Shown here one piece after another: positions 1,719-46,759 of a stretch of 64,000 nt of DNA. The notes beneath the pieces are model-generated. The model saw only the letters and a list, made by a program, of their open reading frames with translations. It searched no databases and had not been told where the DNA came from. A program made the position numbers and the translations under genes. The stretch is from Eukaryota sp. GEM-RC1 (Eukaryota). Every line of letters starts with the position of its first letter. The stretch's first letter is position 1. The stretch covers positions 620,001 through 684,000 of the forward strand of contig JAUFOQ010000004.1 of assembly GCA_040285855.1 (NCBI GenBank). Reading direction: 5' to 3'.

Positions 1719-1744
1719 CGTCAATCAGATACGAAGAGGGGCTA

Positions 1745-8812: not shown

Positions 8813-9310
8813 TAGGGTTGTTAATCAGTCCATCCCACTAGCTCTATGAACTGAACTGACACATGATGATTAATGTTAATCATATCAACAATTCGTATTT
8901 TTGAATAGACGTTGCTATTTCTTAGTTGACCAGATAGTCACATCAAAACAGATTGTCACCCACACTTTGACAATTACAGTAAATTTTCGCTAACATGATC
9001 AAAATGATTAGCAGAATTTCTTGTTTCTCTCTAAAAGTTTTCTAGATGAATTGATTTGTTTGTATGAAGTGACAAATCATGATGTGATGATTTGATTGAT
9101 GTCTCCGTTTTTGATGAAAATACTGTAAAGGTATTGTCAGATTTTCACAATTGTTAGTGTTTTACTGTGTATTAATGTCACATAAAACGGTCATGTCAAC
9201 GGATGATTATCTTTATTGATGGCTTTTTAACAGACAATATTGGTGAATCCACAAATCGTCAGTTCACTCAGTTCAGTGCATAAACTGGGCTGAACTGATT
9301 AACAACCCTA
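8813..9310. mobile_element. hAT-type MITE
   Basis: TIR tagggttgttaatcagt / actgattaacaacccta with a perfect 8-bp TSD gtgcaaaa. Confidence 0.9.
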
Positions 9311-19028: not shown

Positions 19029-20774
19029 CTATGTAATAACAGTAGCCTTGTCTCTTCCAGTAAACTCCTTCATCTTACAAATATCTAGACCCCAAGAAAC
19101 AAACTCAGAAAGCAATTCCGATACATCTCCATCAAATAGACTGGAATCCTCAACGTTCCGTTCCAAATACATCCTAATTGTAGCTCCGGATGAACCAGTT
19201 CCAGATAAACGATAGACCACACGAGAACCATCAGCAAACAAGAAGAATAAACCTTGATTGTGAACAGTTGAACCATCAATAGGATCGGTATAGCTCCAAT
19301 CCCCCGCTTTTTGGAGGTGTAAGTTAAGAGGAGGGGCAATTGGAAGTCCTGAGCTAGGAAAAGAACTACAAACTTCCCTTAAGTGAGTAAAGACATTGTT
19401 GGCGTCAGAAGAAGAAACTTCTTCAAAGTCATAACGTTGAAAAACTCTTCGCTTACCAACTAAACCCCACATCTCCTTGCAAAGATCATATGGCAAAACC
19501 TTTCTTTTCTGCTCCATCGTCTTCTTACAACAAATGGTGACGATGGCGAGTACAGCCCAGATTCCGTCTTTTTCTCTAATATGGGATGAACTAGTACCAA
19601 AAGACTCTTCACCACAGATCTGAGCATAATCCTCGTCTAATAGGGGAACCAAAGTACTTCCACCCAGTGGGAGTACAGTAAGACTCTAATCCCCAGGTAC
19701 TCCGCCACGTCATCAAGTGCTGCACTAGTGGGCATAGACCTAGCTACACCAGTGAGTTTATGTTTCGAAAACTGAGGAAGACAGTCATGGAACAAGGCAA
19801 TTAGAGCAACTGAATCACAAGGAGAAATGAACTTTCCCTTGCTGAGAATCATGTTTCTATCAGCATCTCCATCAGCAGCAGCTCCAATGTCATAACTCTC
19901 ATCAACTAAAACCCTCTTAACTAAATCCTTTGCCCAGACTAGGTTAGGATCGGGATGTCCTCCTCCAAAGTCTGGGAGAGGAGTGGTGTTGAGGAGACTT
20001 TCTTTGGATATTCCCAGTTCAGAGAAGATTCTGTCAGCGTAAGGACCAGCTATTCCGTACATTGCGTCGAAACAAATAGAAATGTTGTAATCAGCAATGA
20101 CTGTTTTAAGGAAATCAAAATCATAGAGCTCTCTCATTAACTCCACATAGTCATCAACGCCATCAAAAACAGTGACTCTGAGGGGAGCGCCATCGATGGA
20201 ATAGTCCTGAGAGGAGAGAGTTGAAGGATCGATGATGAGGTCTTCAACAATCCTGTATTCCTCGACCTGTTTAGAGTAGTTGGAGATGGACTCAGTGACA
20301 GAAAGAGGAGCAGGACCACCATTCTCGGTATTCCACTTGATGCCAAGATCTTCAGTTGGACCCCCTGGATTGTGTGAAGCAGTTAAAAGGAGGCCTCCGA
20401 ACAGTTTGTGGGTTCGGATGAAGGCAGAGCAAGCGGGGGTGGAGAGGTAGCCGTTTTTAGCGACATAAATAGTAGGAGTTGAGATCTGATCAGAAGCTGT
20501 GAGATTAGCAGCAGCTATCTTGACAGCTAGTTGAAGAACATGGTCAGCGTAATAGCGACCGTCTCCTCTGGAATTAGAAATGTGGAAAACCAAACCCAAT
20601 GACGATACTCGATCCAGTAGTACGTGCTTGTAATGCAGAGCAGGAAAAGATGGCTTGGATAAAGTTCTCGCAGTAGTTTGGTTGTTTGAAAATAGAAACC
20701 TTCTTCCTCAGACCAGATGTTCCGGGTTTCTGGTCAGAGAAAGAAGTAGTAGGTTTAGTAACAATAGAGAGCAT
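19029..20774 (-). CDS. PGM: Phosphoglucomutase
   Basis: DQKPGTSGLRKKV; IGGDGRY across a 28-nt intron (20568-20595); TASHNPGG, DGDADRN, GEESFGT, RLSGTGS, terminal TVIT*. Two indels at ~19645-19690. Confidence 0.95.
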
Positions 20775-21091
20775 GAGGAGTAACGATAAGGCTTAAAGGG
20801 GTACCAAAAAGAAAGTCTAGGTCAACTTGTCAATCAATCAACACGACATTCTTGGACAAATAACCACACAACAACTCTACGTCAACAACACCACTGTGTC
20901 ACTCAACAGCGTTTTACACAGGTAAAAACTGAGAGCTGGGGCTTCTGGGATCTTCAACCCAAACTACTGATTTGATGCTTAAGGTTAAATGATGATGATG
21001 GTTTTGACTAGCACAATAGTAGACCCTACAATGTGTACAATAATAACTTTTAGATACAAATACTAAACACTACAATAAACAATTAAAACAG

Positions 21092-22402
21092 TCAACGCAA
21101 AGGACCATCCCAAATAGCATCTAGGAACAGATCAATTAAGCTACTGGTGGATGTTCCAATCGCAATGGACAGTGAAACGAGATTAATAGCGTACTCCCGA
21201 TCCTTTTGATGAACCTTCTTACTAGACATTAACAAGTGGAAAGTGTTGATGTAGGAGCAACCACCTAGGAGACCTGTCCAAAGAGCCAGACCAAGCAATC
21301 CATAAACATTGATAAATCGAAGATAATCTTGAGCCAAGTACAGGCAAAGTTGATGAATTGAAACATTGTTACTGTTCCAATATAAGGAATCTGTACAACG
21401 GAGAGAGAACTTCGTGAGATCAACACGGTTATCTGGTAACATAACTGCACAGCTTCATAAAAGTTAGCCACCAAATACTCACTTGCGTCCTTAGTAGTAA
21501 GAGCATTCTTAGCTAGAGTTGTAATGATGGTGTACTCCAGGACATAGACCATACTTAAGTTAAAAGCCTCGTATTTGATCAGCTTTAGCACCCTCCAAAG
21601 GCGAGCAAAGCCTCCATCTAATACCTCAGCCTTGTCTGCTTCTACTTTGTCTAACAGCGCAGTGGTATCATCAACTGAAACATTCAGAGGGAGATTATCC
21701 TTGAGACTATCTAAAAGTTTGGTCTGATTGACGACTTTTCTTTTGGGATTTGAATCACCCAAAAGATACGTCTGTTTACAATAAATAAACCCTTCCTTAA
21801 TGTAAGGTAATGGGGGAGAAATAAGAACAAAAAGGAGAACAAATAGACTAGGACAAATGGTAAAAGTCCAGCAAATACTGAAGAATTGGGAATCTTGTAG
21901 AAACTGCAAATAAGATAGAAAGAAGCTCCAAAGACTCCAGAAAGACCAGTACCACTTCCCCACGCAGAAACTAGCTTATAGTCCGAAGGAAATTGTTTAA
22001 GGAAACAGAGGATGACTGACTCGCCAAGTGCTGAACTAATACCAACGAGGATAACACAGCCAAGCATGAACCAAAAGTTGAAATGTTCAACATAAAACAT
22101 ACCGATCAAGCCGAGAGTCATGGAAGTAGCATTTGTTATGATTCTAGATGTGTAGGACAGTGAATCAAGACACCAAGTATTGATAATTCTGACAAGAATA
22201 CCGATAGAAACATTACACATGATAATGGCGCCCAGAAGATTATCTTTTCAAAGGACTCAGCAAGAGACTTGGCAGCAGAAATGACAACACAGTACTGAAG
22301 TTAACACGCAACATGGACGCATACAGGCAAATTGTTGATCATACCGACCAAAAGAAGCCCAATCCATGTTCGTTTATATGGAAAGGTGTTTGGATATCCC
22401 AT
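21092..22402 (-). CDS. CLN3: CLN3/Battenin (Btn1) family transporter, copy 1
   Basis: GMINNLP|YCVVISAA across a 30-nt intron, SSALGES, AWGSGTGLSG, LCYQITVLISRSS, GLLGGCSYINTF. Several indels. Confidence 0.85.
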
Positions 22403-22974
22403 TGGAGTAGATGAGAAGTTTGGGGTAAGGTTGAGTTGAAGAGAAGTCCTTGGAGCTCTGGCTCTTAAGTTCATAAATTCAAACTCGATTTGTTGATGAT
22501 CATCAAACTTTATTCAGTGAATAAGGTAACCATCCGCCTATACAATGAAATTGCAAAAACAAACAAACAATACTAAGACTAAATCAAATCGGCTTCATCA
22601 CCAGAATTTGTTGATGATGATCTTGTTTGGTATGATATTATAAACGGTGTTCTTCCTGTACACAACTACTGTAGTAATATTATCTGACAATAACTTCACA
22701 ACCCATCGACAGATTGTCTAATCGATGTTCATGTATCTATTTCTCTTAAGGTGCAATTAAGGATAATTTGTATTCAACGGCTCGTAATTAAGGTTGGACT
22801 GAGTTACTGACTGATATTATCGAAATAAATAAAGAAAGAACAACCAATAAAGATGAGCACAGAAGGTCTGCGTTGCTTAAGTACTCACTTCCAATAAGAA
22901 GCTGTGGATGAAAACCTCAAAAAGTAAGTATAAAATACATCTCAAAAGCAACATACAAGTAGGTAAATACATAC

Positions 22975-23937: not shown

Positions 23938-23969
23938 AATACTAAACACTACAATAAATAATTAAACAG

Positions 23970-25282
23970 TCAACGCAGAGGACCAACCCAAATAGCATCT
24001 AGAAACAGATCAATTAAACTACTAGAAGAAATTCCAATAGGAATGGACAAGAGCACAAGATTAATAGCGTACTCCCGATCCTTTTGATGAACCTTCTTAC
24101 TAGACATTAACAAGTGGAAAGTGTTAACATAAGAACAGCCACCTAGGAGACCTGTCCAAAGAGCCAGTCCAAGCAATCCATAAACATTGATGAATCGAAG
24201 ATAATCTTGAGCCAAATACAAGCAAAGTTGATGAATTGAAACAGTGTTACTGTTCCAATGTAAGGAATCTGTACAACGGAGAGAGAACTACGTGAGATCA
24301 ACACAGTTATCTGGTAACACCATTGTACAGCTTCATAGAAGTTAGCCACTAAATACTCAGGTGCGTCTTTAGATGTCACAGCATTTTTAGCTAGAGTTGT
24401 AATGATGGTGTACTCTAAACAATACACCATTCCCAGATTAAACACTTCATATTTGATCAGCTTCAGCACCCTCCAAAGGCGAGCAAATCCTCCATCTAAT
24501 ACTTCAGCCTTGTCTGCTTCTACTTTGTCTAACAATGCAGTGGTATCATCAACTGAAACATTCAGAGGGAGATTATCCTTGAGATTATCTAAAAGTTTGG
24601 TCTGATTAATTACCTTCCTTTTGGGATTGGAATCACCCAAAAGAAAAGTCTGTTTACAATATAAGAACCCTTCCTTAATGTAAGGTAATGGGGGAGAAAT
24701 AAGAACAAAAAAGGAAAACAAATAAACTAGGACAAATGGTAAAAGTAGAACAAAAACTACCGGATCAGAAATCTTGTAGAACCTGCAAACAAGATAAAAA
24801 GAAGCTGCAAAGATTCCTGAAAGACCAGTACCAGTTCCCCACGCAGAAACTAGCTTGTACTCGGGAGGAAATTGTTTGAGAAAACAGAGAACAATCGGTT
24901 CCCCTAGTGCTGAACTAACACCAAGCAGAACAACACAGCCGAGCATGAACATAAAGTTGAAATGTTCAACATAGAACATTCCGAATGAGCCCAAAACCAT
25001 TGAAATAGCATTCACAATGGTTCTTGAGGTATATGATAGTGAATCAAGACACCATGTATTGATAGTTCTAACAAAGATTCCAACAGCCACGTTACACATA
25101 AGGATAGCACCAAGTAGATTATCTTTATCAAAGGATTCAGCAAGAGATTTGGCAGCAGAAACTAAAACACATGACTTTAGTTAACCTAGAACATGTACGC
25201 ATACAGGCAAATTGGTCATCATACCGACCAGAAGAAGCCCGATCCATGTGCGTTTATATGGAAAAGTGTTCGGGTAAGCCAT
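23970..25282 (-). CDS. CLN3: CLN3/Battenin family transporter, copy 2 (tandem paralog)
   Basis: Same motifs, intron position and 3' flank as copy 1. ATG at 25282. Confidence 0.85.
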
Positions 25283-25374
25283 TTGAGTAGATGAGAAGTG
25301 TGGGGTAGTACTAATGGTGATTTGGAACAAGAATGTATAATTTGTTAATGTAGAAAACAGAAATGTTTAATCTA

Positions 25375-26035: not shown

Positions 26036-27248
26036 AACAGAATTTGATCTCATAATACATGTACATGGTACTGCAAGTACAGACAACCCTCTGAATAGTG
26101 ATTGATGTAGGAATGTCACTATATTGAGGTTAGACTGTATTAGTATAACAATTTTTTATAGATGGGAGCCGGCTCAAAATTTGCTCACGGCTCAGCCACA
26201 GGCATTAGCCAACCGGCTGTGGCTTACAACACATTTTAGCCAGCTCTAGCCAGCTCATAATCATCGAGTTTTGTTTCGAGTATTTAGGCTAACTGCTTAA
26301 AAGTGTTATTGACTTGTTGGTTGATATATCAGTAAAATGATACAGAACCATTGTTAATGACAACTACACCGAGTATCAGAACGACACAACACTGATACTG
26401 TTGATCAGTACATTCCAGTTTTCACAGATTTTACATGTGACTCATTTTTGTGATTATCACATATAAACTTGACGGTTAGTTAATGCTTGAATCTGTGACA
26501 CAATCGTAACACCACTATGGAATTGGCTGTCTGCCTAGTATAAGAAAACAGTAGTACTATTGAGAAGGAACTTAATTAGTTCTAAAGAAACCAAGCCATT
26601 GGCAAAGACGTATTTTAAAAACAAGCACAGCATGTTTTTTATAATTTCTAATCCTTTTGGTATTCTGGATTGTCACCAAAAGCACGAATGCATACTCTAC
26701 TTTTGTCTTAATTTTACAGGTGTTATATCATGTAGGTGTTTTCTAACCAATTAAGACTGAAACAAGAGTAATTGTTGGTAACAAAAAGAAAATTTTATGT
26801 TATTTAGTGATGTATCTGAGGGAAATGTAATTCCCGTATATATCTAATCATTGTCTTTGTTATATACACTATTTTGTCTTCCCACCCTGTATCTGTGATT
26901 GCCGCTAGATGAGCAGTCTTTTTCATCTACATTTTGGTCTCCTTCCAATCTCGAGAGAAAATGGCTGTAATGATCGAACTTTGAAAGATCTGGTTGTTGA
27001 AAACGACTTGAGACTAAAGTTAAACGTTAAAAAAAGTCGAACTGATCTTAATGAATGTTGTTTATTTAATTCGATATAATCTTACAAAACGATAATGATC
27101 GACCTCGTCTATTGTTGGAAACGAATTATACAAGCCTACTAGTAGAAGAATGTGATATCCAACATGTGTTGAGCTTCAGAAAAACACCACCCAACACGTG
27201 TTGAGGTGACTTCAAAGACAGAAAAAGAAGATCAATCCATTTGCTTTA

Positions 27249-27600
27249 ATGTCTCTCCCTGAAAATCTGTTTGGTTGTTTCCAAAGATTTCAATATCGCT
27301 GTTACTGGATGTTTCTGTCCTTGCTATCTTGTTGCCAAGAACCAAGCTGAAAGTGATAATCGTATTTGTACTGTGTTCGATTGTCTCTGTGGTCTTCCAG
27401 CAGTTGAATATTCCTTACGTCAACGTCTCCGCTCTGAATTTGGTGCAGGCTATAGTCAATGTGGAGATTGCCTCTCTCTAGCTGTTTGTCCTACATGTTA
27501 TATCTGCCAAAACGCCCGTCTAATCAAGCATAAGAAGCTCCTCTATGGAAGAAACTATAGTTCTTATGTTCCGACCATGGATGTAAAAAAGAATATTTAA
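27249..27600 (+). CDS. PLAC8-family cysteine-rich protein, copy 1
   Basis: MSLPENLFGCF..DFN..VTGCFCPCYL...RQRLRSEFG...GDCL...CPTCYICQNAR. One extra base near 27282. Confidence 0.85.
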
Positions 27601-28623
27601 GGTAATCAAATATTGTTTAGGTCCACAATGAACACAACATGACCTAACACGTTTCAGTAATTATCGAGGTCAATTGATCAACCAGTTAACGTTCAATGAT
27701 AATTAATAAATGTACATAATAAACAAAACACTAACCTGATTGTATGACATTAATTTACAGAGCAATAGATATATTTGTGCATATACTTTGATTAAATCCG
27801 TTGTGCAATGAACCACAATCAAATGAACACACCAATAGTTCTCTTGATTTCAATCACAAAATCGATTCTCCTAATACAACCTCTATGTATTTCAACATCG
27901 TCTTGTTCCTAGTGTTAGTCAGTTCTATTTTGTATCAGTGTCAAGTACATGTACATACAGCGGTACACTTCTAAAATAAACAACTCTGAATTCTAGTGGA
28001 TGTTTTCAAATAACCATTTTTGTATAGTTTATTGATGTAAATTGTTTCTGTTACAAGCAAACCAAAGAGATGATAACATCATGATGCGATTATCTACAGG
28101 TTATCTTTCCCTCCTTTTGATTAAGAAGTATCTATAATTTACAAAATTTATGTGTATCCATCGTCATCGACTTCTAACATCGTACTTCATGATTGTCACT
28201 TTGAAATGGCGTCTACTAGAGATCAGAAAACTGAATCTGATCTAATGAGACGATGTTTCTGGAATTTCGGATGCCTTTTTCAATCGTTTTACCAATCTCA
28301 AGTCAAGAGAAAGGGGATGGTTTCTATTTTACTTCAGGATTTGTTTGACAGAGTTTTTCTCATCCGGTAATGTTCAGCAACAAGTTTCGGTTTGATCATC
28401 AAAAGAATCACTAATACCGTTGACCATTCTTTTCACAGTAAGATCACAACTTTTTGTGTCGTTTTTGTTGCAATATTAATACAATATTGTCGGACTCTTT
28501 GAAGAAAATACGATAAATCAACACGAAATAATATTGTCACAAAATGAAAATATATTGAAACTTATTATAGTACATTGTCAATTGAGGTAGTATATATATT
28601 GGTGACACACTATCAGTTACAAA

Positions 28624-29111
28624 CAGGGATTGGCAACAATTTATTGGTATCGCAATAAATTGGTATTGGCATTAGTTTTTATTGATTGCAACCCACTTTG
28701 CAATATTGTTTCAATAACAATATTTTGACAATAATTCGTTGTTGTAAAATGTGCATACTATTTGAAAATTGACTTGATCAAAGTAAAGTATCAGAAGCAG
28801 CATCATCATGTGAAGCAGTCTGAACTTCATATCTTTCTGAAATGGGTTGACAGAAATATGCTAGATGTTATTGCTGAACTTTTTTCCGTGATTGAAGATG
28901 GTTTTGTTGTAGTTTGTATTCGAACTTTACCATGTGATCAGTCTGAGTCAATAACGGTATATACTTAGGAAAAACTGAACTCAACTTATGTCACTTTCAT
29001 AGGTGTTTTTTGATGATTTTATTGGTTCAATATATTGGTCCAACACCAATTATTGTTTGGGGCCCAAAATGTTGTAGCAATACTATTGCAAAAAATTGGT
29101 GCCAGTCCCTG
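28624..29111. mobile_element. hAT-type MITE (degenerate)
   Basis: Imperfect TIR cagggattggcaacaattt / aaattggtgccagtccctg; subterminal caata/tattg motifs. Confidence 0.6.
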
Positions 29112-29160
29112 AGTTTTAAATAAGCATTATATTTTTAAAAATCCCTATACTAGTAGAGTG

Positions 29161-30504
29161 CATGGGTGAGAAAAAGTATATTGATATTGTATTTATTGCA
29201 ATAAATATCTATTTATTTATTTATTGTTCTGTGAGTTATCGACAATATTTTTGTTGTTGGTCGAAACAATAAACAATATTATTGCAATATCTTTAAATAT
29301 ATTTGGGTCCTATTTTGTCTGTTTTTACAGTAATACATTGTGCCATTTTTGAAGAAATATAATGTAAAGTGATCCATTGGAGGTTGCTGAGCACGATACA
29401 ATTCTATCTGAGTCTTCTTTATGTCTGAACATAAGGAAATTGTTTCCCACTACTTTTCAAATCTGTACTTGACACTATTTGTCCTGCTTAATACGACGGA
29501 AGCCCAAACTGTTCTGTTGTTGTGCGATTGAAGTTACTCCAAAACAGTATCTTCAATCAGAGTCTTATTCACTACACAATCTGCTGAGCTCTTTTAGGAC
29601 GATGAATAGTCTGAGGAACATCTGATATATCATAAAAAATGTTAGAGCTGTTCTTGTATAATTATTGACACATAGAAACTAAATACAATTAACCAATATT
29701 TATTGACAATAAATACATATATTTATTGTTTTCGACAACAAGAACAATATACACGAATATACGTGTATTTACTTCTGTACAAAACAAAAACAATATATTT
29801 ATTTCGTCATGTTGTTAGTTTCAAGAAATTTTTGCAATTTCCATCTGTTCTACATAACGCTGTTCGTGACGTTACTTATGAAATGTTCAAATCCTACAAT
29901 TATAGTTGTAAAATTGAACCTCTTCTGAAACATTATAGTGACAATAACGTGTTTGATTCTCGGCGTGGTGACTTAATTGCTCCTTTCCTGGATTCATCTC
30001 AAGTTGTGGTTGATTTTACTACAGTTGACCCGTTTGCAAAAGTCTACCAAGACTCCATATTGAATGATTCGAATGGTCATCTAAAAAAGGCTGAACAACG
30101 AAAGTGTTCAAATTATGCGGATGCTTTGCAGAAGCTTAATGAAAATCTATATTCTAAGTTTTCATTTGTTCCATTTGCCATTTCAATTTTTGGTAATATT
30201 GGTCCAGCCGGTTTAAAGTTTTTCAGTGATTTTAGTCTTTTATGTCGTTCTAATGGCAAGGTGTTTAATAGCGCTGTATGGACTAATCGAATTATGTTCG
30301 CTCTTTATAGAAGCATTCCCAAGTATTTATGTTCCATATATTCGAAGTTGTATAGGGACAATTCTCGTGTTGATGTGGAGAATTTAACTTCTTTCATTTT
30401 CTGAATTAGTATGTATTAATTAATTGTTGCAAATAAACTCTTATATATCTATTTTTATCGAAAACAATAAACAATATATTTAAATACATATTTTCACACT
30501 CCTA
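29161..30504. mobile_element. Degenerate hAT-type MITE carrying a nested retrotransposon fragment
   Basis: Ends catgggtgagaaaaagtat / atacatattttcacactccta; flanking 8-mers gtagagtg / gtagggtg match at 7 of 8. Confidence 0.5.
29815..30435 (+). mobile_element. 3' end of an RLE-type (CRE/R2-like) non-LTR retrotransposon
   Basis: HNAVRD...KIEP...RRGDL...VVVDFTTVDP...AEQRK...FVPFAISIFG matches the restriction-like endonuclease motif order. Confidence 0.75.
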
Positions 30505-30577
30505 GTAGGGTGCTTTAGTAGTTGAATCTACTCATGTTTTTAGTTCAAATTAAGCTGCACCTTTAACACGGAGTCTA

Positions 30578-30710
30578 TGATGTTTATTTAAGATCAACTG
30601 GGATAGCGACAAATACACAAAACTACCAATGTAGGTACACTATAAGAATTATGACAAGTGTATGTACAAGCTGGTGGTCGATCCAATGGGAATGACATTT
30701 TCCGAAGGAT
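30578..30710 (-). repeat. Diverged duplicate of the PP2A B55 3' end and 3' flank
   Basis: tgatgtttatttaagatcaactggg...aagaattatgacaagtg...tggtggtcg.tccaatgg.aatg aligns with 38012-38148. Confidence 0.75.
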
Positions 30711-30754
30711 ATTAGGGGCAAAAACGATTGTTTGAGAATAATTTTTTTGTTGTG

Positions 30755-31087
30755 ATGTCTCTCCCCGAAGGCCTTTTTGGTTGTTTCAACGATTTCAATA
30801 CCGCTGTTGTTGGATGTTTCTGTCCTTGCTATCTCGTAGCCAAGAATCAAGCTGAAGTTGATAACCGTGCGTGTACTGTGTGCGATTGTCTCTGCGGTCT
30901 TCCAGAAGTTGAATACTTCTTACGTCAACGTCTCCGCTCTGAATTTGGTGCAAGCTATAGTGCATGTGGAGATTGCCTCTCTCTAGCTGTTTGTCCTACA
31001 TGTTTTATCTGCCAAAACGCTCGTTTAATCAAGCATAAGCAGCAACACACCGTAAACAACGTGAACTCTTATGTGTCAACTATGTAA
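30755..31087 (+). CDS. PLAC8-family cysteine-rich protein, copy 2
   Basis: Intact ORF MSLPEGLFGCFNDFNTAVVGCFCPCYL...CPTCFICQNAR; paralog of 27249-27600. Confidence 0.9.
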   Translation: MSLPEGLFGCFNDFNTAVVGCFCPCYLVAKNQAEVDNRACTVCDCLCGLPEVEYFLRQRLRSEFGASYSACGDCLSLAVCPTCFICQNARLIKHKQQHTVNNVNSYVSTM

Positions 31088-31299
31088 TCCTGTGTGTGTT
31101 TCTTGGTGTTGTATAAATTCTCTTTGTGTTCGTCGATGTTCTGATCTCTGGATATGACGAATTGACAAGAAATTGTCACAATAGATCTATGCTTGATATG
31201 AATGAATACACAATAGTATCCAAACAGATCGTTTAACAGATCGTACTGGAAGAGTAAATTTGCTTTTTCGATTTTTAGGTCTATGTATAGATATGTTGA

Positions 31300-31560
31300 T
31301 TCTATTTTGTCTAAGTTGTTTGGAGGCAACTACTTTTCGGAATTAGGTAGTTCGTTTGATAATTTGTTTTAATAGTGTTTATTTATTTGTACTTATCTTA
31401 TTATGTGTTTTTCTCCGCACATAAATCCGTTTTTTTAATAGATACTTGTGTCACTTTCATTACTTGTTATGGACTTAACCAAATATGGCCGGGTTTCACC
31501 AGCCAGCTAACAAAAATAAAGCTAATTTCTACACAGATACTCCACTCTCTCATCATTACC
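31300..31560 (-). ncRNA. Candidate Fanzor omegaRNA and element right end
   Basis: Directly 3' of the Fanzor stop. Hairpins tggctgg-tgaaac-ccggcca (31486-31505) and ttatgtg-N10-cacataa (31401-31424). Boundaries not determinable from one copy. Confidence 0.4.
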
Positions 31561-34500
31561 ACTCATCCAGTGTTCGAACATGTTCATCATGTTCAAACAA
31601 GCCATCTTGTTTCGATTCCAATACACTTGACTGGGCACTGTGTGCCCTTTCTTTTCTCCCTTCAATCGTTTCGTGACTTCTCCCAGACAATGTTCACTCT
31701 TACACTCTAGTAAGCCATGAGGGTGGATCCATTCTCTTTTCTCTCTTGATTTGGGCTTTGGGTTGACAACCTCAATAGAAGTTTCAAAAACATCTTCATG
31801 ACATTCTGGACACTTGGACGAAGTGTATCTCTCATCATTCATAACTGTTAAAAAACCGTTTCTCTGAAAGAATGAAGTCCAAGTCTTAGTTCTGGATGGT
31901 GGACTGTGTTTTAAGTTGGTGATTGGCTTCTGACCTAAATCACCAATACTTAGTACAATTTTGTCACGACTACCGAAAGTTTTTACAATGCTGTTAACCA
32001 ATTTAGACTCTGTCTTTTGCTTATGGACATGATTTTGGATTTTGTGAATCCTCCATATATGCAAAGCATAGAAGTCTTTAGTTGCATTGTAGTGAATGCA
32101 TTTAGCCAGAATAAACTTTCTAAATTTATTGTAATTAACAGTTTTAGAATTCTGTTCTTCACTTAACCAAGTGTTCCATTTCTCAATTTTCATTGTCACA
32201 GTTATTGGAATATCATCACCTGCTCTCACGGTAGTAGTACCTGATCTCCTTCTAACAAGGTACTGGTGGATTCTTTTATGGATTCTTTTCTTCTTCAATC
32301 GTAAGAAGTTGTATTTCTTCAGAGGATTTTGAGTTTCCCTATTTGATTTAGATGCGAGTTGTAGCATATCTCTCTTTCCAATGTCCACATAAACCATTTG
32401 TTTAGAAATAAAATCAGTCCTATCACATTCATTGAAATATTGTACTTTTACTGAAGCTTTACTTGAATCAGGTTTACATTTCATTCCTTTCAAATCCTTT
32501 CTCACAAATTGAAAACAAATCGAAATTCCATCAGTTACAGCATAGTTGTTGAATTCAAAATTGGCTTTGTGAAAACTTCTGTCATCATAGTTAAACCATC
32601 TTTTCCAGTAATCCTGTTGTTGAGAATGGGTCAAGTTTTTAATCTGATCAGCAGACAAGTAATTAGTCACTTTTGAATGTAAAGGACCAATCTTCTTATC
32701 ATTATTCTTATATCCAAAACAGTGCTTAGCCAGTCCCCAAAGAGTTCTGGTATCTATTGGGAAAAAACAGGGAGTATTCTCTAAACTTAGAGGAATTACA
32801 TTAAACAACTTAGCACCCTTTGATTCCAAGTAATCTGAGATCTGAAGAGAATTTCTAAGAAAATGAAGTGGTTACTCCTGAACTGTGTAAAGTAAATTAT
32901 GGACGTCTACAGTTTCATTGTCGTTTGTAGTGATTGAAGTAGGAAATATGATGTTAAATCTTTGAAGTAATTCTGGAATTTTATCAGCCATGAGAGAATT
33001 GATCTGTTCAAATATTAACATACTGAAATCATCATTAAAAACTTTAGAAACTTCATCAATAAACTTAACATTTTCAGGGTGAGTGGCAGAGTTAAAAGAA
33101 TTAATATACTGTAAGGCTTCATCTCTAGGTCGATACAAAATCTGGTCTTTCAACATCTTTAATCGAAATCTGAAGTAACTAGTGAACTTTTGAGCTTCAC
33201 GACCTGTTAGTCCTGCAAGTTCTGGACCTAAAACCAAATTACGTTTCTGCTTCATTCCCTTTTCAAACTCTTTCTTACCCATTACCATTACTGTATTGAT
33301 AAATCTTTTAATGTACAACTCATAATTGCGGCGAATATTTAGTTCAAACGCAGGCCACATTTCATACTGAGTAGTGTATTCAAAAGCTCTACTGATGTGA
33401 TCAAAATCCAGTTCTGGTATATGACATTGGCCAAATGTATCAGTAACACAGTGCTTATATCCGAGGTAGTTTGAATTGACAGTATAGATTCCTTCACCAG
33501 CAACAAAATCACGAAGATCTGCATCAATTGTTGATATAGGATAATTGTTGTAAATTTTGAATCCATGAACTTCAGATGAAAGATTTCTAATTGAAAGCAC
33601 TGTATGATAAAACAACTTGTAATCAAACTTAGACAAATCTTGTCCAAGACGATAGCGAGCCAACAGATATTCTTTAACACACATTGTAGTCTGTTGTCTT
33701 AAAGCATTGTAGAACTGAGATCCTAAAAGCATGGCATCTTGAACTTCTTGATGTTTTACCACACTAAGAACTGAAGTTTTAATGGAAGCCAATGATTGAA
33801 AAACAATTTTGTCTTTTTGAAATAAAATAAACAATTTAAACGCCAGAATTGAATCATGAAGACAGTAGTTGATTAGAGTTTTCATTCTTTTATCATTTCT
33901 TAAACAATCAACTGGGAGGAAGTGGTCCAAGTCTTTATCCAATTTCAATTTGGGTTCAGAAAGTAAATTCCAAGATAAATTGGCTAGACTACAACCATAC
34001 TTGAGACCAATATGCTTTTTTGCAAACAAGAAGGTATCCAAAACTGTAAAACAATTGTGATCTTTTATGATATCCAGCCATCTACTTTGTAAAGGTAACT
34101 CAACTGGATTTGGATTTGTTAAAAGAGGTCAAGAGCCCACATTCTATTGTCAATAATGGGCAAATCAAAATTGAAAATATTATGGCCAATAAAAGCATTT
34201 GGTTTATATTGACTAACAATGTTAGCGTACGTAACCAATAATTCGTTTTCATTTGGGAAGTCCAAAAGATCTAATTGAAAAGCTGGTGTTTCTGATTCAC
34301 TGAATTTGATTTTATAATTGTAGTCAGTGTAAAGGACGATTGAGTTGTCAAATTGTAATTCACCATTGGATTGCAATTTTGCAATAATGACAGAGATCAT
34401 GATGATTTGTTGATCTGCGAGAAAATCAAGGTCGTGAGCTTCCTTCTCAAAATCATTCATTAACAATCTTCTCTGTTTCAAAGACTCTTTTTCCGTTCTA

Positions 34501-34598
34501 CGATGTTCATTCAATTCTTTGTTCACTCGTGTAGGAATTCTCTCATTGATATTTCTTGTTTCAATATCAATTATAAAAACTGTAGGAAGGGGAGTCAT
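31522..34598 (-). CDS. DEDDy 3'-5' exonuclease-Fanzor (TnpB-like) fusion, ~1025 aa after repairing one indel (~34120) and one in-frame TAA (32872-32874)
   Basis: ExoI IIDIET, ExoII GHNIFNFDLP, ExoIII YCLHD. Then, in the same ORF, a Fanzor-like N-terminus (SIKTSVLSVVK...KEYLL), KLFNVIPL, TDGISICF, RuvC-I VDIGKRD, IGDLG, DERYTSSKCPEC, HGLLECKSEHC and RuvC-III WNRNKMACLNM. Confidence 0.85.
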
Positions 34599-35912
34599 CG
34601 ACAACAGTATCAGTTGCAATGTCAATAAATGGAATTCTTGATTCTTTTTCCTTTTTTCCTTTAACAACTGGAATTTCCTCAAATTCATGCAAAGAGTCAG
34701 TTGAACCTTCAACTACATGCGAACTTTGACATTCTTCGTCAGTTTTTGGAAATTTTGTACAACCACTAGATTGATCATACAGTCTCTGTTGACGTTTAGA
34801 ACCTTGTTCTTGAGGACGATGAATTACTGACGAATGACACTTTTTTGGTTTCCGTTCTAGCCGTCGTGCTTTAGAGTTTTTGACGGATGTGTCAGATGAA
34901 GAAGAATAACTTGACGAAATTTTATTAGTTACTTCTAGAGTTTTACGACGAGATGACTTACGTGTAGTACTTTCAGAAGGGTCAGAAGATTTATTTCTTT
35001 TCCAGCAGGTTGATTAGTTTTGGGACATTGTGTCTTTCTTCTACCAGTGAGCAACAGATCGATGTTGACCAGTGTGAGTGTCAATGATGAGATTCAAAAT
35101 CCTTTTCCTCATTTCTAGAGCATCATATTCATTGAAAAGTCGAACTTGAAGTAGAATTACGTTGATATCTAGTGACGCTTGTTCAAATTCAACAAATTTA
35201 CTCATGTACTCTAAAATAAAAGGTCCACAGTCACCTTGTGTTTGGTGTTGAGTAACGAAAAGCCTTCCTAAATAATGATAATTGAAAGGAAAAAACACAC
35301 GCTCATGAAATTGTCTAATAACATCTTCGCAATGACCTAAAGTATCTAAAACTTTTGATGTTGATTTTGAGTAAACATTGGATCAAGGGAATAGTATCTT
35401 TTTCTCTTAATATCACAAATCAGCAGAGTCCAGTGAGTAGCTTCATTATTAAAGATACCATCGTTTATTGGAATAAACAAATATTGTTTGGTTGGTGGTC
35501 TGGAAGAATTCATCAAATCTAAGGTTTCTTGAAATAGTTTGTGAAGATGCCAACGATCTCTTTCTTCTTCAGCCAAATTGTCCTCTGTAATTGCAAGTGA
35601 CAATGCTTCACACGAGAGATATGGCCATTTAACACTATGTTCAGTAATGTACTGTCCATAAAAGTCTACAATAGTGGTCCATAACCAACTATGAGGTAGC
35701 AAAGAATCAATATTGGAATGATTTTCAATTAGATCGGGTCCAGGATTAGACTCAATGTCCCCGTCCATAGTCAAATCACGGAGAAATTGTGATGACTGGA
35801 GATTTATTTTGGATTTTGAAATAGCACAACAAGAACCACTACAGTATGGAGTACTATAACAAAAAAGAAATAGAAGAGATTTGAGGATCGAGGGACCCAT
35901 GAAAATCTTCAT
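34567..35912 (-). CDS. Leader ending in a 2A motif + Ulp1/SENP8-like (C48) cysteine protease + Ser/Lys/Arg-rich region; frame-disrupted
   Basis: LRDLTMDGDIESNPGP; protease motifs SWLWTTIVDFY, FIPIND...THWTLL (His), YSLDP (Asp), QHQTQGDCGPFI (Gln/Cys). Indels near 35350 and 35000-35070. Confidence 0.8.
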
Positions 35913-36078
35913 AAAGACCTGACGGTCTTGATTGAAAAGACAAAAACAAAAAAAGAAATAGAAGAGATTTGAGGATCGAGGGACCCATGAAAATCTTCAT
36001 AAAGACCTGACGGTCTTGAGTGAAAAGACAACAAACCCAGCAAAGGAGTGATCTGAGGATCAAAAGACCCATTGAAGG
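35858..36078. repeat. 88-bp tandem repeat: two near-identical units plus a diverged third
   Basis: gatttgaggatcgagggacccatgaaa at 35878 and 35966, variant at 36050. The two full units contain the inverted repeat aagacc-tgac-ggtctt. Confidence 0.85.
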
Positions 36079-36333
36079 CTCCCTGACAGTGGGGGAGACG
36101 AAGCACAGTGAGATATCTAACCAACACGAAGTCGATAGACATCTCACTAAGCGAATGATCTTAAATTTCTGTTTGAACTATTTGTGGTTAATGTCTACAT
36201 TGACATGTTGACATCTTGACAAGTTTGAGAATATGTCACTGATACAATAACAGTTGATGTCGTACTAATTGTAACTAACAGTATATGGTATATGATGTGA
36301 AATTGGAAAAAAGAAAACAATATTTATTCTATA

Positions 36334-36956
36334 TCGTAGGTGTCCCAATACAAGCAAGGTTCCAATACAAGCAAGGTTCCAATACAAGCAAGTAAAAGTG
36401 TTTGCTTGTATTATTCTGCTGCATTCAGGATGTTGAGCGAGTTATACTTCAATACAAAGTGTATTCAAATGAATTACAACGTATAGAGCTGTGAACGAAC
36501 TTCATAGTGTCCACTTGGATGCTTACGTGTTGTTGTTGCTAATTTTTACCCGAAGAACTCGATGGAGTTATTGTATTGTTTGACATTTGTAAAATCAGAA
36601 GCACAAAATGGCCTATCAAAAATCCAATTTATGAAACAATAGGCAATAGAATCCCTGTCAATAGTACTTTGCTCCTATGCAGACAAATATTGTATACTTG
36701 TAGAACAAATTAACATACTGTTGTTAAAGCATGTGTCATATTTATGTATTGTTATATATTTTTGTTCTACAGTATTTATAATACAGTGTACAAGTAGCAT
36801 TACGAAATAGAGTATGTGATCCAGTAATATATCGAAATCAAAGGTGTCGTCGCTTCACCGTATAATAGGGTCCCAATACAAGCAGGTCCCAATACAAGCA
36901 ACAAAATGTGTTTGCTTGTATAAGATATAAAGTTGCTTGTATTGGGACACCTACGA
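36334..36956. mobile_element. Tc1/mariner/pogo-type MITE
   Basis: 24-bp perfect TIR tcgtaggtgtcccaatacaagcaa flanked by TA on both sides; subterminal repeats of ccaatacaagca. Confidence 0.85.
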
Positions 36957-37560
36957 TAATTACAAAACTATGTGTATAAATGATTCCTCATCACTGTGGA
37001 AAACTTACCTAAATCCATGAAGCAATCTAAATGACATCATCCTTGGTGTCGTCGTCATGACAGCTCCAATTGGCGTTTTAAGAGCTCCTCGTCGTTAAAA
37101 GCACATAACCTTGCAGCTTGTGCTGTCAACATTGCAAGTTTTGATTTATTAAAATCAGTGTCGCAGTTGTCTGAAGTATTAGAGTAATACCCGACCAAGA
37201 CCTCCCACATTTCATTGGTTTTGCGAAGGTTTAGATCTCCATAAATAATATTTGCATACCTGGATCTTGTCAACATAACATTCAGTCGACGATAGTCTAC
37301 TAATCCCTCCGAAACACCACTCCCAACTTTGGTCCTTATATTTATCTGACCCTACTCTCCATGTTCTCACTTCACAGTCTTGTTATGCGGCGTTCATAAA
37401 AACACACCTTTATCTAAAAGGAATACTGCGTGATTGTTATGGGAAATGGACAGTACTAACTCAACGTGAACTAGTACTACACGTAACTGCATCACTATTT
37501 AATGAGTATATATCAATGATGATGTGTGAAATCACCAAATCGGTCTGTAACGGTAACATC

Positions 37561-37893
37561 ATGACACGACTTCTGCTTGTTTTCTTCTTTCTTGCTCTAG
37601 TCAACTGTACTCTGTATCAGATTCAAGTACACAACAGAGGTACTGCAAAATTGGATCGCGTGTGGTCTTTTACCGACGGACGTTTCGAGTCTCATCCAAA
37701 TACATTTCTGCTTCCTTTGATGTGGACTACCATGGCTGTGAGTGGTACAACATCTCCTTCTAAACTAAACTATTTTGCTGGTAGGCAGAAGACGTCTGTT
37801 AGTTTTGGAAAAAATGGATGTAGTTGTTTGGGTTGTGACTGTCGTGTTGATACCGTTTCCTCTACATCCTGGAAGGTGTATTTCTACTGTTAA
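37561..37893 (+). CDS. Small secreted Cys-containing protein of unknown function (110 aa)
   Basis: Signal-peptide-like start MTRLLLVFFFLALVNC; intact ORF with CSCLGCDC and a terminal Cys. Confidence 0.6.
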   Translation: MTRLLLVFFFLALVNCTLYQIQVHNRGTAKLDRVWSFTDGRFESHPNTFLLPLMWTTMAVSGTTSPSKLNYFAGRQKTSVSFGKNGCSCLGCDCRVDTVSSTSWKVYFYC

Positions 37894-38084
37894 ACGTCTA
37901 TCATTGCGTGTCCTATTTTTGGTCATTTGTAAACTTCAGTGTTAGTCAACCCAATCTACCCATCAACAAACTGATACGTAGTACTCACATGTACAGATTG
38001 TTTACATTACATGATGTTTATTTAAGATCAACTGGGGCAGCGATAAATACAGAAAACTAACTATTTAGGTACACACTAAAAGAA

Positions 38085-39451
38085 TTATGACAAGTGGTAT
38101 AGGTATAAGTTGGTGGTCGCTCCAATGGCAATGGTATTTTCAGTAGGATGCCAAGATGAAGTCAAAATCTTACGTGCAAAATCGTCATTTCCAAACTTAA
38201 CATCCTGCATAAGGTTCTTTGACTTGGAAGATCGAGATCCATACTTTGGACGTTTGTTGATAGATCTTGAGGCCTCCAATGTCGTAACATTTTTAGACTG
38301 AGAATCATAGACATTGAACAAATGTCCATAAGACCCTGTCAAAAACTTAGAGTCGTCACCTGACCATTGTACTTCAAACTTATCAAAGATACACTCATTC
38401 TTATAAACATCACAGAGATTAGATCGTAGTTGTTCGTGTACAGACACCGTTTTAACAGGGCGACTGTCCATGTTGACATCCCACAGTTTAACAGTAAGAT
38501 AATCACGTGACAAAATGTAACGTCCATTATTGGAAAACTTGACGTCACTTATACTGTTTAAGATCTCATTGAAATAAGAGTTATTAGGATTTGAAGGACG
38601 CGGAGGAAGCGCAAACCTTTTCCCATGTTGGTTACAGATAGCGGATTGCCGCATATCCGCAAGATTGATGATCCCCTTGGAAGTTCCGTAGATGAAGTGA
38701 TTACAATGAGCGGGAGAGAATGACGCGGTTGTAATGACTTCAGACAGTTCTTCCATGTTGTCGGGCTTGATGTCTACTATAGAGAAGGCTTCGCTGTTAT
38801 CCCCTAGATGCCACAAATGTATCCGTAGATCATCCGCGCTTAGAAAAGTTTCCCCGTCATTGTTGAGGGACATCGAGTTGACAGAGTACGCGTGTGCATT
38901 GGCGAAGACACGTTTACACGACGCGCTAGGCGCTGAGGATTCGGGTACAAGTTTAGGGACACGCACAGAAGATTTAGGCGTGATAAAACTATCACGCTGA
39001 TAGACTATACGTTTGGATGCTTTATCTTGAACTTTCCACAGTTTCATTGTTTTGTCATTGGTTGTTAAGAGCAGTGTTGAGTCGTTATGAGGCGGCAGCC
39101 AGCAGATCTTGTTGATACGTTCATCGATTTCTAGAGATCTAAGATAATCAAATTCAGCAAGGTGAGACTGGAACTCGGAGTAATAACGGTATTCCACACT
39201 GCGCAGAGCACGGCGAGCCTGAAATGAATGAAGAGATGTACCTCAAACCTTAGAGTCGTGGACTCGTTTAAAAAGAACAACTCTACCACCTCTATCTCCA
39301 ACAGCAAGCATGTTTCCGTCTTGATTGAACTGAACAGTAGAGATTATATCGGCTGGGGAAAGAGCCACAAGATGTAAAACAAACCCTCAACAATATCCTC
39401 AAGTTTGGCACGATCCCCGAAGACTTGACAGAATTTCCATTCTTCAGACAT
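38085..39451 (-). CDS. PPP2R2: PP2A regulatory subunit B55 (WD40)
   Basis: [59 protein letters not shown]. Introns at 39353-39384 (32 nt) and 39219-39248 (30 nt). Confidence 0.95.
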
Positions 39452-43520: not shown

Positions 43521-43799
43521 CAGCTAATAGCTTATAAATGTCAAATAATAGTGACCTGGTTAAGGAGAGAAAATTATGTTGAAGTTCTTTTCAAAACTTC
43601 AGCGGTTTACCATAATGGTAGACCACGAGAGAAATTTGACAACCACTGATACAGCTCATGGTTGTCTAGGGATTGCTTATACTGATTCACAGTAAACTTT
43701 TTGAGAAATTGTCAACCATGGTCATGTAACTTAATGACGAATAATTTCTGAAACTTCGCCAAAATGTAATAATTTACGTAAATTTAACTTCATTGTTTT

Positions 43800-44375
43800 T
43801 CAGAAAGGCAAAGAAGGATATGGCCTTTGAAAAACTGAAAAAAGTTTTAAGTTCATAAGTGCATCTTTTATACAGTAATTGGTCAATTCAGCTCTTTCTT
43901 CAGTTGTTTGCATTAGAATAGAATTGCATTTGCTGAGTTTAGATTTTCCTTCAGCTAAAATACTTGAGGAAACACTGTTGAGACTGTTGAAGTTAAATTC
44001 TTCTTGGCAAAAGAACAACAGTCATATCGTCATGAATGATGGTAGAATGGATTTTTAAAATTGTCTCTCTTTGAAGAATGTATGGTAGATCAAAGAAATC
44101 AGAATAAAAGCTTGAAAGAAAATCTGGTGAAAATGAATTAAACAAAAATAAGGAAACTCGAAATCAAAAGGGATTCAGATCTAAATAAAAACTATTACTT
44201 TCAGAATCTAATGTTGTAACCTTTCCAAAACTAAGCAAATGGTTTTCAACATTAAAATTCTTTTCATTTATAAAATAACAAAATGAATAACCAATCATGA
44301 CGATCGAAACCACAAAACTTCCTTCATCAAATTCATTGGGAGTTTCAATATCAACTACTGAAAGGGTGGACATTT
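43800..44375 (-). pseudogene. Relic of a PolB-type DEDDy exonuclease domain related to the one at 33840-34598
   Basis: MSTLSVVDIET (ExoI), DFFDLPYILQR (ExoII), SLNSVSSSIL, LTNYCIKDALMNLKLFSVFQ (ExoIII; compare LINYCLHDSILAFKLFILFQ). Confidence 0.7.
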
Positions 44376-45183
44376 TGGCAGTTGATTTGACTCTTATATA
44401 TGGATCCACTGAAGGTGAAGCTTTTAATTTTCGCGTATGTTGATACCACGAGAACGTAATTTGACAATAGTGTTTCCATTTCTATATTCATTTTGAAAAT
44501 AGACACAGACATGTTAGAGGGAACCTCAATTCTATAGCTTTAAACATATACGTAATTCTTTGTGATTCCTACCACTTCTAACTTGGAACAAGCATCATAT
44601 TGACGATTTGATACACCTCAGTATTGGAAATACATGTGGTATTAATATAATGGGTTTGGATTTTTGTGAATTTGTCGCTATACATACCATTTAATGACGT
44701 CCGTACTGATAACAAGAAACTATTTTTAAATAAAACGGTATATTATGTTACAAACATCTTGGTACAGTACTAGACATTGTTTAAATATTCATTTAACAAT
44801 TGCACATTGAGTATTTTCGTGGAGTATTTTGAAGGTCTGGTCCATGGTTCACAGATTTTTATTGGGTCTGGTCTGTAAGTATAAAGACTGTTTCCGACCT
44901 TTGCCCATCACCAAATTGTATCATGGTAGATCAAGAGTAGATGTAGAGCATTTAATATCATTTAACTACTAGTTGGTATTTCGTTAATTTTTGACATAAC
45001 AAAGTTAATTAAAAACAAAAATAAGTATGTTAATGACTCTTGAAAAGTGAAGTCTACAAGTGACTTGAGTTGGAGTTTCCCCATCCTACTTCTAACCAAA
45101 AATACCATGGTCCCTCTTTTTTAAAATCTTAATTTATCATGAATGAAACCTTTGCACCTGTCATCACTGCAGTATTCCGAGTA

Positions 45184-46308
45184 CAGTCAACTATGTCTAT
45201 AGCGTCACTAAATGGTAGAACGCTATAACCGTTTTACGCTATATAGGTAAACCTCAGTGTGCCCATCTGTACAATAACAAATATGTATCAATCAAACCTA
45301 AGCAGAACAAACTACATGTGGGTCATCCAAACAATCTAACAGTGGATGGGAATCGAGCCCTGAACTATGAGAACTGCAACATAAAAGTGGGGATGGTAAA
45401 TTCGACACAGTTGAATTCAAGAAGGAGCATAAACGTTGCAATTCTTGAGTTGTGGCCTCACCCTATCTATATCTAGTAGCAAAAGAGTGGAGAATGTCAA
45501 GAACTTCTCCTTCTCCCAACAAACGATTATCTTCCTTTACTACACTGGAACTCCCCATTTCTGTGTGAACTACACTTTCATTCATAACACTTTGTCCAAT
45601 AAGTGTGATCAATGACTCCTCCGTATTTTCTTCTCTCGCTATAGCGGCATCAACCCTGTCTTCCTCTGTTTCTTCTCAAAAAACCACGGAACGTTTTGTT
45701 CCCAAGTCAATATCGCCAATCAAACCTGTTTTCCTCCACACCTTCTAGATGACGCTAACTTCTGCTTCCTGCAAAGCATCGACAAGTGTGTGAATTACAT
45801 GATGAAGATCGAAGTTTTTTAGAACAACCTCGAGATCTCGTACTATTTTTCTTGCACACCACTTTCTCAATAAACGTCTGTATCCACATTTGCAACTTCT
45901 TATGATTCCCTAATATAATGGCTGTGACGATGTATTTGGTGGTAGATACAACAGTCTCACATGATTCAATGTTGAAACACAGTCGTCGTTGACAACAAAG
46001 TTATCAAGATGATACATTATCACTGTAGTGATGAAGTCGGAGGCTGAAAAGGAGAAGTTGGAGGTTATTCTGCGGAACTGCGTTCCAATTTGCATAAGGA
46101 AAGAAACACATCGAGTGCAACATCAAATTCTGCTTGAAAGAACGACAAAAGTGTGACCGGATACCATGATTTATTCAGAAACGGTCTATTGGGACAACAC
46201 TACGAGAAAACAGATTGTGGCACGGGAAAAAATGTCGGACAGTGAAAATTGTACGCTATAAACAGTTTTACGCTATAAAGATTGTGACGCTATAGACATA
46301 GTCGACTG
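45184..46308 (-). mobile_element. Internally deleted pogo/Tigger-like DNA transposon
   Basis: TIR cagtc(a/g)actatgtctatagcgtcac flanked by TA; DDE relic LDNF...HVRLLYLPPNTSSQPLY. Confidence 0.85.
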
Positions 46309-46759
46309 TATTTAGTCTGGATAAACAATTAGTCTGGACTTTAATTAGTCTGGTTCAGACTAATTCATACGTGTATGTATTGGATCTCTTTCAAAAGGTC
46401 ATTTTTTTACAACAATTAGTCTGGTTTTCACAATAAATTGTAAACACAATACACTACAAAGATACATATGGATTACAAAAGAAAGACATGATAGAGAGTG
46501 GACTGTGTACATCAAGTGGAAAGCTATAGAACACAGGACAATTGAACTTTTGCAATTGGCAGAAGACACTTTGAGAGAAGTAAACGATCAAAGAAACGAA
46601 AATGATTAACATAAGCTCGTAAAGCAATGATTCTTTGTGGGTTGTCGTTAAACACAAACAGACTGTGGAGACCGTTGAAACTAGAGCTACGGGCGTTCAT
46701 ATCCAAGTATTTAGAATAATTTGAAGTAATGATACCAGACACTGTTTCTGACAGTGATT

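Follow-up and report, generated by a model that had tools for sequence, protein, structure and literature searches.

What would an RNA-guided nuclease gain from a proofreading exonuclease carried in its own chain? The question is raised by a locus on a 64,000-nucleotide stretch of the genome of Eukaryota sp. GEM-RC1 (assembly GCA_040285855.1, contig JAUFOQ010000004.1, positions 620,001–684,000; this whole stretch is called the window), in which an earlier note, made from the sequence alone, had placed a Fanzor nuclease fused to a family B polymerase (PolB)-type 3'-5' exonuclease. The fusion, called exo-Fanzor here, is very probably real and under selection, and the comparisons below point to a clade-wide, selected fusion of Fanzor1 to a proofreading-type exonuclease that often stands behind a 2A-like peptide and a Ulp1 protease domain. 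As for its use, the answer preferred here, with a probability of about 0.45, is that the Fanzor part may cut a guided target and the exonuclease may trim the displaced strand, after which the element would be copied into the break by the host.

The exo-Fanzor gene in the window

The exo-Fanzor locus and the parts upstream of it all lie on the minus strand. The N-terminal part of the PolB-type DEDDy exonuclease (34119..34598) contained the ExoI motif DIET (34557-34568), a family-specific basic helical insert, and the ExoII motif HNIFNFD (34164-34184); in a Pfam scan, the open reading frame (ORF) 34119-34712 matched PF03104 with an E value of 2.4e-14, far beyond the curated cut-off. The C-terminal part of the exonuclease, with ExoIII YCLHD (33853-33867), continues in frame into the Fanzor1 N-terminus, where the WED strand IKTSV (33769-33783) is followed by REC, within one uninterrupted ORF (32872..34128) ending at a TAA. 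Past this single stop, and in the same frame, lies the C-terminal half of Fanzor1 (31522..32871), which comprises WED strands, RuvC-I VDIGKRD (32368-32388), a bridge-helix region carrying an in-frame lesion (32263-32304), the RuvC-II Glu, the zinc finger, and RuvC-III. The canonical RuvC-II position, inert in Fanzor1, reads IGDLG (31933-31947), the Glu being relocated to the zinc-finger region (31801-31839, with NDERYTSSKC, and 31687-31704), while RuvC-III, WNRNK (31606-31620), aligns with the RuvC-III motif of SpuFz1. The three exonuclease motifs, the shared ORF, and the single TAA had been read in the same way in the earlier note, and the start given there, 34598, is an ATG just before ExoI; homology nevertheless runs on upstream of 34598.

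The same note had counted two lesions, an indel and a stop. Both are present, but the count was too low: in addition to the frameshift near 34125, which splits the exonuclease, and the stop at 32872, a frame break near the exonuclease start (~34590), a 6-bp duplication near 33285, the bridge-helix change, and a Trp to Leu substitution before KTS were found. Fifteen of the 18 GEM-RC1 members of the family were examined at the damaged sites. The 34125 frameshift was read through in six, the 32872 stop was replaced by Tyr in ten, and the bridge-helix segment was intact in ten, the remaining members in each case not spanning the site. The use of TAA as a sense codon in the host was rejected, since Tyr and no other residue was found at that position in the ten siblings. 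The single-base breaks could be assembly errors, because five of the 15 siblings are also broken at the same purine run and because a host gene of the window shifts frame twice. This host gene (19029-20707, minus strand), which by its motif we take to be phosphoglucomutase-like, changes frame twice within about 40 bases near 19640-19690, suggesting residual assembly indels. For the stop, the bridge-helix lesion, the 6-bp duplication, and a deletion near 35049, decay looks more likely. The window copy is a broken representative of a multi-copy family.

Identity and conservation of the exonuclease domain

The motifs ExoI DxE, ExoII NxxxFD, and ExoIII YxxxD, together with a DnaQ-like fold, characterize the domain as a PolB-type DEDDy exonuclease. 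The closest solved exonuclease was that of Pol delta (E 1e-10), by a narrow margin, with the RB69/T4 and herpes polymerases scoring just behind. As the earlier note had stated, no family B polymerase domain follows the exonuclease in domain scans of the window and its relatives, and the Fanzor WED begins about 25 residues past ExoIII; a decayed DNA polymerase gene was rejected on the absence of the polymerase domain. Among seven family representatives the exonuclease domains are 20–40% identical, and 21 of 209 gap-free columns are invariant, including the catalytic D, E, D, Y, D, of which ExoI contributes the first two, ExoII the second Asp, and ExoIII the Tyr and the last Asp. The AlphaFold2 (AF2) model of the relative P0019, with a mean predicted local distance difference test score (pLDDT) of 60, confirmed only the exonuclease well and matched PpFz1 at E 7e-5.

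The Fanzor1 body and its catalytic triad

The Fanzor half of the window copy gave a weak Pfam match, to TNB (E 0.03), so the Fanzor assignment rests on relatives. P0033 matched SpuFz1 with an E value of 1.6e-14, and a profile of 110 relatives matched SpuFz1, PpFz1, and GtFz1 at E 1e-135 to 1e-88. For P0205 an AF2 model (mean pLDDT 79.5; predicted TM-score 0.71) predicts a disordered N-terminus, the exonuclease, and a complete Fanzor1 fold in which REC and WED are expanded. A Foldseek search with this model returned seven Fanzor1 chains first, SpuFz1 scoring E 4e-31 and TM 0.82 by target length, followed by PolB exonucleases (Pol delta/epsilon). Both domains could be called by profile and fold searches (PF03104; AF2/Foldseek to SpuFz1), as had been predicted.

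Fanzor1 has been defined by the RuvC-I Asp, a distance of 125–275 residues, [TS][TS]xx, and a C4 zinc finger (PMC3627910). In P0001, 186 residues separate D582 from T769, with CPEC and CKSEHC, in agreement with the 2013 spacing rule, and in the window copy the RuvC-II Glu is relocated just before the zinc finger, as is characteristic of Fanzor1. The Fanzor identity, the RuvC-I Asp, and the relocated Glu named in the earlier note stood, while its RuvC-III motif NRD did not: in place of the strict 2013 terminal motif RD the window copy has RN, as do 24 of the 25 family sequences showing the motif (the exception, with Asp, is one TZLM1-RC fragment), whereas outside the family Asp occupies the position in 75 of 80 rows.

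This difference between the family and its surroundings would fit a dead RuvC, in which case the protein would bind under RNA guidance and bring the exonuclease to its target, or a fusion that is a functionless passenger. The RuvC-I Asp, the relocated RuvC-II Glu, and the four zinc cysteines are retained, and the third Fanzor1 catalytic residue may be Asp or Asn (PMC11423790). According to the same source, GtFz1 cuts with D-E-N, the D606N change raises the activity of SpuFz1, and the reverse change lowers that of GtFz1. Despite its RN the family is filed under Fanzor1, given that Asn is also found in the accepted Fanzor1 GtFz1; since GtFz1 and D606N SpuFz1 work with Asn, an active RuvC nuclease is likely, and a certainly dead RuvC was rejected. 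The invariance of the catalytic exonuclease residues argues against a passenger. We consider both variants very unlikely and retain the reading in which a guided cut is followed by trimming.

Spread and phylogeny of the family

The best match to the window protein (94% identical) heads a GEM-RC1 cluster of 18 proteins, and the second (46% identical) heads a cluster of 11 labelled TZLM1-RC. A profile search against 1.84 billion representatives returned 1103 matches at E <= 0.001, the best 150 of which were examined. A hidden Markov model (HMM) of the exonuclease, built from three family members, recognized 17 of 164 proteins at E < 1e-12, the next best scoring 0.09. Fifteen of the 17, all but P0064 and P0068, were traced to their sources, which are GEM-RC1, TZLM1-RC, or TZLM3-RCL throughout; among the best 150 of the 1103 matches, the traced fusions come only from these three related protist records. 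The exo-bearing proteins form about seven families at the exonuclease identities given above. A one-off chimera, which the earlier note had named as a possible refutation, was rejected, because the fusion recurs in multi-copy clusters and has been retained in about seven divergent families from three species-level records. The complete set of Exo and RuvC motifs, three of each, was found in one chain in four of 217 proteins (P0033, P0055, P0204, and P0205), which come from records labelled TZLM1-RC and TZLM3-RCL. The intact copies to which the earlier note had looked thus exist in proteins of these two records, but not among the GEM-RC1 members examined. The RuvC-III change from Asp to Asn, the 2A-like peptide and Ulp1 protease upstream, and the family-wide spread go beyond that note.

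In a FastTree phylogeny built on 402 columns of the C-terminal Fanzor part from 149 sequences, after removal of 21 that were near-duplicates or low-coverage fragments, the exo-bearing proteins nest among the Fanzor1 matches, and 17 sequences, 16 pre-marked family members and the near-identical copy P0054, form one long-branch clade with a support of 0.998. Its sister group is unsettled in this tree (support 0.24), and the source records of the clade members P0062, P0063, P0069, and P0073 were not traced. Skoliomonas sp. GEMRC, S. sp. RCL, and S. litria are described as free-living metamonads with Nanopore assemblies (PMC11316075). A metagenome scan gave 92 pattern matches, none of which was confirmed, and the 34 loci of a viral scan were all standalone Fanzor1, without an exonuclease by the family HMM. 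A word-index search with the exonuclease region of P0033 returned P0002 alone among 2648 candidates, and the ESM Atlas gave low-score leads (0.77) only, to viral DUF8286/TNB clusters.

The motifs and spacing of the family would equally fit a use in which the exonuclease blocks re-ligation, so that guided cuts would mutate or destroy their target, such as a virus, a rival element, or an empty allele; engineered TREX2-SpCas9 and exoCasMINI fusions are reported to boost editing efficiency. Many near-identical dispersed copies, in clusters of 18 and 11, suit a selfish element better than a defence gene, and the window showed no guide arrays. Such destruction of targets appears unlikely to us, and trimming for homing is preferred.

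Junction between the exonuclease and Fanzor

In 23 of the 24 matched proteins the ExoIII Tyr and the WED motif KT(S/T) lie 32 residues apart; the remaining one has a spacing of 31. The residue four before the WED Lys is W, Y, or F in all 16 family rows covering the position (Leu in the window copy), and in the alignment this aromatic takes the place of a His that stands four residues ahead of KTS in SpuFz1. H21 of SpuFz1 stacks on the first heteroduplex base (PMC10432273), and by matching of the numbering the His before KTS appears to be this H21. Since the aromatic aligns with it, the exonuclease would be tethered about 10 residues from the R-loop junction proximal to the target-adjacent motif (TAM), and we infer that the tether sits at the WED strand touching the first guide-target base pair.

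A second, decayed exonuclease remnant on the minus strand of the window (43750..44481; PF03104 E 3e-4, family HMM E 6e-6) retains ExoI, part of ExoII, and ExoIII, as VDIET, DLPY, and YCIKD. It is about 35% identical to the main copy, belongs to a different family, and keeps the same spacing to a Fanzor-like Lys; no further Fanzor sequence was detected beyond that point.

The position of the tether also bears on whether the exonuclease acts on the omegaRNA instead, shortening it from the 3' end until guide length is reached. Ribonucleases are known among the DEDD enzymes. In Fanzor1 the guide forms the 3'-terminal part of a longer RNA that needs maturation (PMC11423790); the TAM-proximal tether, however, would be far from the guide 3' end, the domain is of PolB-type DEDDy and closest to Pol delta, a DNA exonuclease, and Fanzor1s lacking such a domain mature their guides unaided by it. 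Guide trimming is accordingly rated as rather improbable, and of the two roles suggested in the earlier note, trimming of DNA ends or of the guide RNA, the first is favoured on these sequence-based grounds.

Parts upstream of the exonuclease

A basic low-complexity linker (34567..35013) precedes the exonuclease. By tblastn it is homologous to the region that separates the 2A-like peptide and the exonuclease in P0019 (94%) and P0033 (40%, E 3e-8). Further upstream, a Ulp1/C48 cysteine protease domain (35041..35732; PF02902 E 1.2e-5; siblings P0049-P0053) shows the catalytic His (35421-35435), Asp (35379-35390), and Gln/Cys (35224-35238) motifs; in the window it is broken by a frameshift near 35350 and by the deletion near 35049. 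It is preceded by the 2A-like motif DGDIESNPGP (35736..35765), which fits the consensus D[VI]ExNPGP (PMC12338488) and is a putative site of ribosome skipping. Consensus-matching 2A-like motifs also occur in P0019, P0033, P0036, and P0213, while P0066, P0074, P0209, and P0210 carry DGD[VI]HxNPGP, with His for the consensus Glu and an upstream Trp. A hydrophobic leader region (35766..36142), shared with the sibling P0050, contains an 88-bp tandem duplication (35861-36034).

The order of the parts varies among relatives. P0036 shows, in a single frame, a Ulp1 tail, 2A, linker, exonuclease, and Fanzor; P0074 and P0213 show 2A, Ulp1, exonuclease, and Fanzor; P0066 and P0210 show 2A, exonuclease, and Fanzor. 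These orders come from automatic gene models that may be mis-spliced: P0213 is without ExoI, and P0204 begins with a DEAH helicase. Among the four members of its cluster, the annotation of P0204 (TZLM3-RCL) alone places this helicase in frame ahead of an intact exo-Fanzor; the helicase is either a captured gene or a gene-model chimera.

Element boundaries and mobility

The inserted DNA could be bracketed to about 31090-37560 by duplicated host segments. The apparent tandem duplication (27229-30710 and 30735-38149) comprises two PLAC8 genes (84–89% alike) and, twice over, the start of a secreted-protein-like gene; at 30577-30710 the 3' end of a PP2A B-subunit-like gene recurs. The duplicated segment was rejected as an empty site, as its intergenic DNA no longer aligns above shuffles. 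With a terminal-inverted-repeat DNA transposon (hAT, Mariner, or MuDR) in view as the carrier, no repeat pair longer than 10 nt was found between 31050-31540 and 36050-37060. The expected omegaRNA or right-end region after the stop (31400..31545, minus strand) contains a small GC hairpin (31487-31504). One stretch, 31470-31600, folds with a z of -2.8 against shuffles, and a search of the right-end region in Rfam gave one chance match (E 2.4) and no meaningful one. The inserted interval also holds a 627-bp inverted-repeat element (36332-36958) and, upstream of exo-Fanzor, a C-terminal fragment of an AAA_12 (Upf1-like) helicase (37055-37351, minus strand; E 0.0014). A Helitron would be expected to show a RepHel protein and a 3' hairpin with CTRR or asymmetric terminal repeats; no CTRR follows the hairpin seen here, and the helicase fragment is AAA_12, not Pif1/Rep.

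These features bear on another reading, in which the substrate of the exonuclease would be a transposition intermediate, perhaps single-stranded or rolling-circle and produced in trans by another enzyme, with Fanzor as a mere carrier. Fanzor1 is often borne by Helitrons and other DNA transposons (PMC3627910), the inserted interval includes the superfamily 1 helicase fragment, upstream of exo-Fanzor and in the same orientation, and a DEAH helicase stands upstream in the P0204 gene model. The two helicases, however, belong to different superfamilies and may be bystanders, a Rep/HUH or transposase domain was found in none of the relatives scanned, and the fixed 32-residue spacing implies an exonuclease coupled to the Fanzor body. 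We judge this reading quite unlikely and return to trimming at the guided cut.

Proposed mechanism

Under the preferred reading, the 2A-like peptide would free exo-Fanzor from the upstream protease, and the Fanzor1 part, predicted to be RNA-guided, would cut the empty allele. The non-target strand is cut after base 16–17 by SpuFz1 (PMC10432273) and after base 14–17 by GtFz1, so a similar cut would leave a single-stranded 3' tail of 14–17 nt of flank sequence on the TAM side. Judging from the layout of TAM, element, and guide, this tail would mismatch the donor, where the element follows the TAM. Because it has no match to the donor at the junction, the tail would have to go before repair synthesis could enter the element. 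The exonuclease, tethered at the point where this tail would emerge, would trim the displaced non-target strand back toward the TAM, in cis, and the trimmed 3' end would then be ready for homing, in which host repair would copy the element into the break. Precedents exist: Pol delta proofreading chews invading 3' ends and clears non-homologous tails in yeast break repair (PMC9477423), T4 intron homing employs the 3'-5' exonucleases DexA and gp43 (PMC2988022), and OMEGA nucleases take part in restorative homing (PMC13565253).

Several observations weigh against this mechanism. The window copy is broken by frameshift, stop, and in-frame lesion, and none of the GEM-RC1 members examined unites the six motifs in a single annotated chain. 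At the window locus neither element ends nor target-site duplications could be identified, and no transposase or other mobilising enzyme was found in the inserted interval or in the relatives scanned. The post-stop region folds no better than shuffles in three of four stretches (z -1.1 to -1.4), and the interdomain linker in the AF2 model of P0205 is only moderately confident (pLDDT <50 at 379-381). All five GEM-RC1 Ulp1 proteins end in a frame other than that of the linker; a GEM-RC1 polyprotein is hence not established, and an intron, a frameshift, or two genes are possible. Homing also accounts for retention at a locus and not for dispersal to many loci, and host Pol delta is already able to trim, so that a benefit of a private exonuclease is assumed. 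The larger picture, a transposase-free element that spreads by RNA-guided cut-and-trim homing and encodes a 2A-split polyprotein of a SUMO-type protease and a two-nuclease Fanzor, is offered tentatively and regarded as doubtful.

Other features of the window

Short elements with terminal inverted repeats of 25–27 bp were found at 36332-36958, 45182-46310, 7467-8696, and 8813-9310, that at 7467-8696 enclosing a hAT dimerisation fragment. The ORF 29676-30404 (plus strand), which has no Pfam support, presumably resembles, by its motif, the restriction-like endonuclease end of a non-LTR (long terminal repeat) retrotransposon. A large leucine-rich-repeat membrane protein gene (52833-59380, plus strand), which we take to be BspA-like, includes a tandem array of seven units of 654 bp each; its 5' part recurs in inverted orientation, 95–98% alike, at 1-2168 (minus strand). 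A membrane-transporter-like gene is present in two tandem copies (21086-22427 and 23964-25307; 82–90% alike).

Significance and comparison with known systems

The biological role of Fanzors is described as an open question (PMC10432273), and an exonuclease kept catalytically intact and at a fixed distance across families only 20–40% identical points to the events after the cut. The homing model is directly testable, since there are intact relatives whose two active sites can be inactivated one at a time. If cut-and-trim homing is true, exo-Fanzor would be the first natural effector of the TnpB/Fanzor/Cas12 type to carry its own end-processing exonuclease. No description of a natural Fanzor-exonuclease fusion was found in full-text literature searches, with supplements, Repbase, and subscription journals outside their scope. 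The word 'exonuclease' is absent from the main text of PMC3627910, PMC10432273, PMC10530073, PMC10711439, PMC10691335, and PMC13565253, and 'Fanzor' from that of PMC11316075; a literature search for Fanzor and metamonad was empty.

SpuFz1, PpFz1, and GtFz1 (PDB 8gkh/9ceu, 9cf0, 9cer) share with exo-Fanzor the WED-REC-RuvC-zinc-finger body (Foldseek E 4e-31 to 4e-17) and the relocated RuvC-II Glu, and GtFz1 also shares the D-E-N triad. They are single nucleases of 630–870 amino acids as described in PMC10432273 and PMC11423790, whereas in exo-Fanzor a complete DEDDy exonuclease leads into the first WED strand, and further upstream come the 2A-like and Ulp1 parts. The nearest relatives outside the clade are standalone Fanzor1s (PF26935/DUF8286) of giant viruses and metagenomes, with 22–28% identity in the C-terminal half; those of the viral loci have the NRD motif and lack the exonuclease in all 34. 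The exonuclease of Pol delta (PF03104) has ExoI, ExoII, and ExoIII with D, E, D, Y, D in common with that of the element, which differs in a basic helical insert of about 45 amino acids after ExoI and in having no polymerase domain. Homing of the T4 td intron with DexA/gp43 (PMC2988022) and engineered exonuclease-Cas fusions likewise join a site-specific cut to exonucleolytic end processing, but these employ separate host or phage exonucleases or artificial fusions, whereas exo-Fanzor is one natural chain. It is a natural counterpart to the engineered exonuclease-Cas fusions and could yield an editor with built-in end processing.

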